Assembly (NCBI GenBank): GCA_963823665.1
Contig: CAWGMQ010000004.1
Location: 2,784,001 to 2,848,000 of the forward strand
Length of the DNA: 64,000 bases
Source of the DNA: an uncultured Planctomycetota bacterium
GTDB taxonomy: Bacteria; Planctomycetota; Planctomycetia; Isosphaerales; Isosphaeraceae
Direction: 5' to 3'
This document shows positions 2,309-3,924 of this stretch, in pieces; within the stretch, counting starts at the first letter, position 1; each line of letters begins with the position of its first letter. The notes under the pieces were generated by a model. It did no database searches. It saw nothing but the letters and a program-made list of their open reading frames with translations, and was not told the origin of the DNA. The position numbers were made by a program, and so were the translations under genes.

Positions 2309-2462
2309 AAAGGAGGTGATCGCGTGTGTAGTGATAACCAGGGGCGGCTCGCCTAACGGCAGCCGACGGGTTGCCCGTCGGGCAGCCGCAACTCTTGACC
2401 ATAACCTTACGGTTGGGATCGGCCAGGTCTCTGGCCTTCGGGTTCGGGGCCTGGCTGAATCC
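2309..2462 (+). other. Extended Shine-Dalgarno + 10-aa ORF (MCSDNQGRLA, 2324-2356) + two hairpins
   Basis: aaaggaggtgatc at 2309-2321; stem ccgacggg/cccgtcgg after the stop; ggccaggtc...ggcctggct stem at about 2421-2456. Confidence 0.5.
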
Positions 2463-2514: not shown

Positions 2515-2634
2515 TTGCGTCACGCGTGCACAGAGAGTCTGTACGGTCTGTTTGCTTATCGCACCTGGCGGTGGTCCTGGGTGTTTACCAGGCTCACAAC
2601 CGTTCGCCGGGCCGAGGATGGAGTGTCACCTTAA
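2515..2634 (+). CDS. Aromatic-amino-acid-rich leader (attenuator) peptide
   Basis: TTG-start 39 aa MRHACTESLYGLFAYRTWRWSWVFTRLTTVRRAEDGVSP; 2 Tyr, 2 Phe, 3 Trp within 15 codons; gaggt 8 nt upstream. Confidence 0.75.
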   Translation: MRHACTESLYGLFAYRTWRWSWVFTRLTTVRRAEDGVSP

Positions 2635-2662
2635 CTCCACTCGACTTCCCAAAACACACAGT

Positions 2663-2704
2663 AAAGGCCCCGGCACCTTTCTCAAGGTTCCGGGGCTTTT
2701 TTTT
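2663..2704 (+). terminator. Intrinsic terminator/attenuator upstream of DAHP synthase
   Basis: gccccgg-c-acctt...aaggt-t-ccggggc stem followed by 8 T. Confidence 0.85.
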
Positions 2705-2910: not shown

Positions 2911-3924
2911 GTGATCGTGGTCATGAAACCTGACGCGACAGCCGCACAGATCGAGCACATGGCAACACACATCGCCTCACTGGGACTTACGCCCCAGGTG
3001 ATCCATGGCACACACCAGACCGTCATCGCTGCACTCGGCGAGGAGCGACCGGGGCTGACCGAGGTCCTCGAGCCGGGTGAGGGGGTCGAAAAAGTCCTGC
3101 CCATCATGGCTCCGTACAAGCGAGCGTCTTCCGAGCTCAAGCACGAGCGCACCGTGGTGAAAGCCGGCGAGCTAGCGGTCGGCGGCACCCGGGTCGCCGT
3201 CATTGCCGGACCCTGCTCCGTCGAGAGCGAAGACCAGATCGTCAAACTCGCCCGCCAGCTCAAATCCATGGGAGCAACCGGTCTCCGCGGAGGCGCCTAC
3301 AAGCCGCGCACCAGCCCATACAGTTTTCAGGGACACAAGGAGCTTGGACTCAAGATGCTCGCCACTGCGGGCAAGGAGACCGGCCTGGCCATCGTGACCG
3401 AAGTCATGGCACCTGAGCATGTGCAGATCGTATCGGAATACGCTGACGTGCTGCAGATCGGCGCTCGCAACATGCAGAACTACCAGTTGCTCCAGGCCGT
3501 CGGCGATTCGGGCAAGCCCACACTCCTCAAGCGCGGGATGAGTGCCACCGTGGATGAGTTCCTGCTGGCCGCCGAATACATCCTCGACCGCAATAATCCC
3601 AACGTCATGCTCTGCGAGCGCGGCATCCGCACCTACGAGGATCACACGAGATTCACGCTCCCGCTGGCGACCGTTCCCTACCTGCACGACAAGAGCCATC
3701 TGCCGGTGGTCGTCGACCCGTCACACGGAACCGGCAAGGCACGGCTGGTCGCTCCCATGTCCAAAGCCGCCATCGCCGCCGGTGCCGACGCCCTGATCAT
3801 CGAGGTGCACGAAGACCCCGAGCACGCGGTGAGCGACGGTGCGCAGACCATCACGCCGGCGGCATTCAAGCAGTTGATCGAGCAGTGCCGGCGGATTGCG
3901 GAAGCGGTGGATCGGACGATGTGA
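2911..3924 (+). CDS. aroF: 3-deoxy-7-phosphoheptulonate (DAHP) synthase, class I-beta with N-terminal regulatory domain
   Basis: [43 protein letters not shown] start after ggagg. Confidence 0.95.

Follow-up and report, generated by a model that had tools for sequence, protein, structure and literature searches.

A conserved leader open reading frame and terminator upstream of DAHP synthase in planctomycetes, a probable attenuator for tryptophan, phenylalanine and tyrosine

The stretch of planctomycete DNA analyzed here (the window, 64 kb in full) carries, at positions 2911 to 3924 of the forward strand, a gene with a GTG start that encodes a type I-beta DAHP synthase of 337 amino acids. The original prediction had placed a DAHP synthase downstream of a leader peptide, and profile and structure matches bear out this identification: the protein matches PRK08673 above the cut-off, has an N-terminal ferredoxin-like (ACT-type) domain (PF18152) and can be aligned from end to end with the Thermotoga enzyme 1rzm. 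Among named relatives, the closest are from the Isosphaeraceae. DAHP synthase catalyzes the step from which synthesis of all three aromatic amino acids begins, and the enzyme encoded here contains no Trp residue. The regulatory domain of the Thermotoga enzyme, which is of the type found here, binds Tyr according to PMC5493349. At the positions where the Thermotoga enzyme has H29 and S31, 83 of 84 homologues have Q29 together with I31 or L31, the window enzyme being Q29/I31. We take H29 and S31 to have a Tyr-binding role, so that their replacement makes Tyr feedback on the enzyme uncertain.

Upstream of this gene, the ORF list and the sequence contain a 39-codon ORF with a TTG start and a TAA stop (2515 to 2634, + strand). 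A Shine-Dalgarno-like site, AGAGGT (2501 to 2506, +), lies 9 nt 5' of the TTG at 2515; it was assigned from its duplex energy and from the position of the start in relatives. The duplex of AGAGGT with a canonical anti-Shine-Dalgarno motif has an energy of -9.6 kcal/mol. The ORF thus has a ribosome-binding site and a start of its own. Between 2542 and 2586 (+) it carries the putative control codons Y10, F13, Y15, W18, W20, W22 and F24 (YGLFAYRTWRWSWVF), identified from the sequence and from relatives, so that seven aromatic codons, three of them Trp, fall within 15 codons. At least seven W, F or Y residues occur in only 3 of 95,863 stop-free 15-codon stretches in the six frames of the window, namely, the leader itself and two overlapping stretches at one other site. 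That site (37763 to 37716, - strand) is the only other one in the 64 kb with seven aromatic residues per 15 codons. Base shuffles of the leader ORF reached at least seven in 6 of 20,000 cases. Codons for the end products of the pathway are enriched in frame.

Between the leader and the gene lies an intrinsic terminator, consisting of a hairpin (2667 to 2696, +; -20.8 kcal/mol) that is conserved in relatives and a U8 tract read directly from the sequence (eight T residues, 2697 to 2704, +). The ORF with its aromatic run and the U8 terminator after it are thus present as had been described. A consensus scanner missed the terminator at 2667 to 2704, returning 0 terminator sites and 0 promoters. 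The terminator ends 214 nt from the gene in the window and 27 to 352 nt from it in relatives, which argues for termination of transcription and not for masking of the gene start. In this interval the window has a long inverted repeat (2778 to 2863; -49.9 kcal/mol for 2766 to 2870), which resembles a repetitive extragenic palindrome; it is missing in the congeneric locus L002, and short RNA-library contigs fit its arms.

To place these features among relatives, we compared 110 homologue loci, which, minus 3 without upstream DNA and 23 duplicates, gave 84 distinct upstream regions including that of the window. An aromatic leader was found in 73 of the 84 (four of them, L021, L056, L069 and L091, called by eye) and was missing from 11, so the aromatic cluster is conserved among close homologues. 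A hairpin search that was blind to the peptide recovered the terminator in 72 of the 84 regions. Of these, L026, L029 and L097 were set aside because the cluster was missing at the usual distance, and L030 was treated as belonging to another family, leaving 68. When the frame was set by the G-run of the antiterminator alone, an open frame with at least three aromatic codons was present in 59 of the 68 loci; the other nine were misanchored, and leaders are visible there too. In 57 of the 59 leaders a Phe codon stands 9 or 10 codons before the end of the antiterminator, and the codon used is TTT in every one of the 59. Because the anchor was selected as a Phe that has Trp upstream of it, its presence follows in part from the selection, but its being TTT does not. 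In the gene, TTC outnumbers TTT by 268 to 31, and the uniform TTT of the leaders could reflect a constraint at the RNA level. In 44 of the 58 relatives that have a start, the one best backed by a Shine-Dalgarno sequence is 21 to 23 codons upstream of the fixed Phe; the start is TTG in 30, GTG in 19 and ATG in 9 of the 58.

Only the composition and position of the aromatic cluster are kept in these leaders, not the peptide sequence nor the last residue. Arrest peptides of the TnaC type have a fixed C-terminal residue and a conserved peptide sequence; with 13 different last residues among 59 leaders, the leader does not fit a TnaC-type peptide arrested by free Trp. Cultured carriers of the leader include Singulisphaera acidiphila (L072), Aquisphaera insulae (L108), Tundrisphaera (L063 and L089) and Tautonia (L092). 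Ten loci (L026, L028, L061, L097 to L100, L102, L105 and L106) have lost the aromatic leader and keep a small RNA that lies further upstream; L097 keeps the terminator without the aromatic cluster. Two of the ten, L098 and L105, come from records titled Candidatus Kuenenia, have an Isosphaeraceae-like DAHP synthase (74 to 75% identity) and are possibly mislabeled bins.

The original prediction had also proposed three alternative pairings. All three exist in the window sequence, but only one is conserved in relatives. In that one, gccgggcc (2606 to 2613, +, within leader codons 31 to 33) forms the 5' arm of a putative antiterminator, assigned from duplex energy and covariation, and its alternative partner is the 5' arm of the terminator (-17.4 kcal/mol for the duplex); in most relatives this arm reaches about 7 nt further 5'. 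The structures were evaluated on 39 thinned family sequences and were taken from the consensus, which favors them. The terminator was 88.8% paired with 18 two-sided changes, and the antiterminator was 88.5% paired with 11; for each, 0 of 500 shuffles did as well and slid registers were worse, although kinship among the relatives means that the shuffle counts overstate significance. Both stems thus covary. Antiterminator arms also pair better with their own terminator arm (-22.0 kcal/mol) than with swapped (-19.5 kcal/mol) or shuffled (-14.3 kcal/mol) ones in the family, and the corresponding values in other families are -19.2, -15.1 and -11.6 kcal/mol.

The other two pairings did not hold up as conserved elements. 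The helix of ctgggtgttt (2577 to 2586) with aaacacacag (2652 to 2661), for which 9 of 10 pairs can be read directly in the window, was 56% paired in the alignment and equaled by 63 of 500 shuffles. The small hairpin over W22 to T25 (2576 to 2592, +), in which cctgg (2576 to 2580) pairs with ccagg (2588 to 2592) at -7.8 kcal/mol, was 51% paired in a single fixed register and did better in a slid one; it is a possible pause or protector whose register is not conserved. A 1:2 protector duplex is possible in the window sequence (-19.6 kcal/mol). In the predicted folding of family leaders the protector had a mean probability of 0.35 without a ribosome and at most 0.06 with one, and in the family alignments no conserved 1:2 protector hairpin was found, the candidate helices not being kept in register.

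The position at which the ribosome would decide between the two stems was examined by folding 39 leader transcripts truncated at the terminator loop, with the ribosome masking 12 nt past its A-site codon. The predicted probability of the antiterminator was 0.72 to 0.79 as long as the ribosome stood no more than two codons past the fixed Phe and fell further on to 0.47, 0.24 and 0.04, so that covering of the antiterminator arm by the ribosome is predicted by folding. For the window sequence itself the predicted drop came at codons 27 to 29, with a dip to 0.1 to 0.5 around Y15 to W18 in some settings. Folding with ribosome masking, which had been put forward as a check, thus gave a predicted switch two to three codons past the last Phe of the cluster; with the full terminator included, equilibrium folding gave none, the terminator winning at every ribosome position. 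Control must therefore be kinetic.

The mechanism that we propose is as follows. A ribosome would start at the weak TTG and race RNA polymerase. While charged aromatic tRNAs are in good supply, it would pass F24 and cover 2600 to 2613 before the terminator is complete; with the arm covered, 2667 to 2696 would fold and transcription would end at the U8 tract. If Trp-, Phe- or Tyr-tRNA were scarce, the ribosome would lag at or before F24, 2606 to 2613 would pair with the 5' arm of the terminator, and polymerase would continue into the gene. The fixed Phe would mark approximately the last stall position that leaves the antiterminator arm free. As every aromatic codon precedes this switch point, delays at Tyr, Phe and Trp codons would add up, and in the leader of the window the three Trp codons would give the largest share of the delay.

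Which amino acids the leader reads can be judged from the codons that relatives keep. Family leaders carry on average 2.98 Trp, 2.39 Phe and 1.36 Tyr codons; these and the following counts are descriptions and not P values, since kin sequences are not independent. Of the 59 family leaders, 51 have all three amino acids; thinning to below 75% identity leaves 39, of which 34 have all three. Tyr accounts for 80 of the 1,180 codons from 16 before to 3 after the fixed Phe and for 7 of the 812 in the N-terminal part of the leader that precedes this region in frame, so that its density around the cluster is approximately 8-fold higher. Compared with codons of the same composition, TAC occurs 36 times versus 1 to 11 and TAT 44 times versus 2. 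Tyr is missing from the whole cluster in 8 of the 59 leaders, and in the tight region from 7 before to 3 after the fixed Phe it is present in 25 and absent from 34. Tyr is thus kept in the family but is loosely placed and upstream, mostly 9 to 15 codons before the fixed Phe, like Y10 and Y15 in the window.

The same counts bear on a different reading, in which the leader is an attenuator but effectively a sensor of Trp, or of Trp and Phe, in this family, with the Tyr codons adding little and Tyr and Phe acting mainly through feedback on the ACT-type domain. About three Trp codons per leader stand in a fixed block while Tyr is scattered upstream, the enzyme has the type of domain that binds Tyr in Thermotoga and no Trp of its own, and the Corynebacterium aroR leader did not respond to Tyr (PMC11802643). 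Against this, Tyr is enriched near the cluster above codons of the same composition, a ribosome stalled as early as the Tyr codons still permits antitermination in the predicted folds, and the Q29/I31 substitution leaves Tyr feedback on the enzyme in doubt. We regard this restricted sensor as improbable. For the Isosphaeraceae-type family, three-way sensing of Trp, Phe and Tyr is likely on these sequence comparisons, with Trp likely the strongest input, and in the genome of the window all three amino acids probably contribute. The idea of a single leader integrating all three therefore stands insofar as all three codon types are kept, but the cluster is weighted toward Trp and Tyr enters its tight region in fewer than half of the leaders. 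Our guess is that a Trp-weighted leader could complement Phe or Tyr feedback on the enzyme.

A further possibility is that the leader reads the general decoding speed of U-starting codons, through tRNA A37 modification by MiaA/MiaB or through wobble, over amino acid supply. All of the control codons begin with U, the wobble codons TTT and TAT are favored in the leaders against the usage of the gene, and loss of MiaA derepresses Pseudomonas trp leaders (PMC13434334). Yet the cluster consists of codons for the three products of the pathway and occurs only before orthologous DAHP synthase genes. We give very little credence to decoding speed as a replacement for amino acid sensing; it is more likely to be an added input.

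The leader also extends beyond the family: of 40 loci belonging to other planctomycete families and classes, 28 have it; these 40 are the best-scoring matches, and 89 of 121 genomes had no match at the strict cut-off and stand outside the count. Within the same class, 14 of 18 loci from other families have the leader and the terminator, and in 13 of those 14 Trp, Phe and Tyr stand in one compact run, such as WFGFYFTW (L030) or FFSYWHFYF (L121). In other classes the leader is present in 14 of 22 loci (one of the eight without it is cut by a contig end), with all three amino acids in 10 and only Phe and Tyr in the cluster in 4. Overall, 23 of the 28 leaders outside the family have Trp, Phe and Tyr within approximately 18 codons. 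Between families, the leaders have composition and position in common but not sequence. Four loci of one family (L142, L145, L148 and L150; f34) have a cluster of Phe and Tyr codons from which Trp is missing, making them natural two-input variants, and three of these have a stop codon inside the antiterminator arm.

The leader was absent before all 5 paralogues at approximately 50% identity, one of them from the genome of the window. Other genes of that genome were inspected one at a time, and two trpE-like genes, trpB and pheA had no aromatic leader immediately upstream; these may not be operon heads. In one locus (L199, G000:C6:946370-947762), a trpE-like gene lies in two frames, split near model position 365 by a frameshift or an assembly error.

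The DNA upstream of the leader contains a second conserved element, a structured small RNA (2189 to 2462, +) that was recognized from folding, covariation and its single copy in the genome of the window. It folds much more stably than its shuffles (z score of -5.1), two-sided changes occur at 19 of 36 predicted pairs among 32 sequences, and its 5' hairpins covary. It contains a perfect extended Shine-Dalgarno sequence (2309 to 2321, +), a 10-codon ORF (2324 to 2356, +) whose consensus in relatives ends NQ-R-LA and which is 9 to 11 codons long there, with synonymous changes and in-frame insertions, and a closing hairpin predicted at about 2409 to 2462 (+). A loop, GGCTGGWC, is invariant in 77 of 77 small RNAs and is complementary to CCAG in the ORF; a pseudoknot around the start of the ORF is possible from this complementarity. 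In 77 of the 81 regions scored, the small RNA precedes the gene, and 10 of these 77 have no aromatic leader; its pattern matched 22 of 23 other family genomes; in 100 genomes across the phylum the strict pattern gave 4 matches versus 7 control matches, which is the level of chance. In two other families it stands apart from the gene with a U-tailed hairpin of its own, so that it counts as an independent gene. In L003 its 3' part is partially duplicated in tandem upstream of the leader. An Rfam search assigned it to no family (weak likeness to CC2171, 21 of 75 bits). It is not a tmRNA, since ARAGORN gave no tRNA or tmRNA in the 64-kb window, and it bears no resemblance to the Rhodopirellula-1 motif among the alignment rows compared (PMC2864571). 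No report of it was found in the literature searched, and it is the least explained part of the locus.

A promoter-like sequence, TTGATC-N17-TAAATT (2154 to 2182, +), was read from the sequence just upstream of the small RNA; it was the sole promoter candidate found for the unit and is below the threshold of the scanner. The pattern TTG-N16-18-TANNNT precedes the small RNA in 72 of 75 relatives versus 1 of 756 control windows, and no promoter-like pattern was found between the small RNA and the leader in 56 of 56 loci, leaving the aromatic leader without an evident promoter of its own. In the 20 RNA runs, each of which held less than one-fifth of the words of the stretch, the data are contigs and so give neither transcript ends nor levels. 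Contigs of relatives pile up on the small RNA, with a summed word depth of 47,000 to 707,000 at 2317 to 2347 in four metatranscriptomes, which, though no measure of expression, suggests an abundant RNA. Contigs of relatives lie on the leader in all 7 runs compared, and summed contig depth, which is unfit for ranking, reaches about 340 on the leader and about 20 at the start of the gene. Contigs or joints run from the last hairpin of the small RNA into the leader in runs X1, X2, X4 and X10, from four studies. A contig spanning two elements is not the same as one transcript, so read-through can be called likely and no more. One contig ends within the U tract, too little to count. Judging from these patterns, the leader transcript probably starts at about 2189 and is reached by read-through from the small RNA.

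This arrangement raises the question of whether the terminator merely ends the transcript of the small RNA, the aromatic ORF being a small peptide or an accident. In nearly all scored regions the small RNA is upstream, and only 22 of 56 copies have a separate U-run, as this explanation would have it, but the same leader-terminator design occurs in other families with its own promoter and no small RNA, and in 4 family loci without the small RNA. The leaders, moreover, keep composition and position but not the peptide, and the antiterminator covaries. We consider this explanation highly improbable. On the comparative sequence evidence, the leader-peptide device very probably attenuates across the phylum, and the conserved leader ORF with its overlapping antiterminator and terminator is probably a ribosome-mediated attenuator in which delays at the codons for Trp, Phe and Tyr add up, Trp being likely the strongest input in this family. 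More speculative, and unlikely in our estimate, is a two-tier ribosome-read control on one transcript in the Isosphaeraceae, in which the apparently abundant small RNA, with its perfect Shine-Dalgarno sequence and 10-codon ORF in long-range pairings, would set onward transcription and the trivalent attenuator would then set entry into the gene. Just upstream on the same strand (1463 to 2065, +) lies a gene for a stand-alone HD-domain protein (PF13328, RelA/SpoT hydrolase-like), possibly a small alarmone hydrolase adjoining an amino acid starvation switch.

Escherichia coli controls DAHP synthase by three isoenzymes and two repressors. Multivalent attenuators are known from other pathways, thrL responding to Thr and Ile and ilvL to Ile, Leu and Val. 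The leader described here resembles them in that a single leader has codons for every product at the ends of a branched pathway, although pathway and amino acids differ. There is no sequence relation to them (Thr_leader scored 17.4 bits versus an Rfam cut-off of 55), and the Rfam Trp_leader and Phe_leader models gave no match at E values up to 5, the best score being a subthreshold His_leader at 20.9 of 49 bits. The T-box riboswitch model likewise gave no match at E values up to 5. With the E. coli attenuators trpL-trpEDCBA, pheL-pheA and pheST (PMC11802643), the leader described here shares an ORF with cognate control codons, a terminator and an antiterminator that exclude each other, and a U tract. 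It differs in that each of those responds to a single amino acid and governs a terminal branch, and in that no conserved 1:2 protector was found here. The original prediction of a DAHP synthase attenuator of the trpL/pheL type is thus supported by anatomy, conservation, codon enrichment and covariation, though not in the form of equal three-way sensing.

The closest precedent is the aroR-aroF attenuator of Corynebacterium glutamicum, in which a mixed aromatic leader peptide likewise controls transcription of a DAHP synthase gene. This leader, first noted in PMC4046766, has a Phe-Tyr-Phe run and responded to Phe but not to Tyr (PMC11802643); compared by description, it has no Trp, unlike the leader in the window with its seven aromatic codons including three Trp. 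The Acholeplasma uORFC-13-1 motif before aroF is similarly a predicted uORF with a terminator before 3-deoxy-7-phosphoheptulonate synthase but carries only a Phe-coding U run, with 24 examples from Acholeplasma and environmental DNA (PMC8632094). Also on record are a Corynebacterium ilvB uORF (PMC11109978) and the listing of Shewanella aroF and aroH as possibly attenuated (PMC2659441). In a mostly open literature that included the accessible parts of PMC4833913 and PMC3937554, with the attenuator survey of Lopatovskaya et al. (2010) outside its scope, we found no planctomycete report of an aromatic leader and none of any leader reading Trp, Phe and Tyr together. The novelty first supposed is accordingly narrowed: no planctomycete report was found, but a mixed aromatic leader attenuating DAHP synthase is already known in Corynebacterium. 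The proposed mechanism is classical attenuation, and the three-input form and the phylum are the parts for which this literature gave no report.

If the proposed reading is true, one leader would add up scarcity of Trp, Phe and Tyr, giving the aromatic pathway its equivalent of the multivalent thr and ilv leaders, and classical attenuation would extend across a phylum for which we found no report of it. The natural variants, Trp-heavy here, balanced in other families and Trp-free in four loci of one family, suit tests of codon number and position as input weights, and the leader would offer a ready design for a one-piece biosensor of aromatic amino acids.
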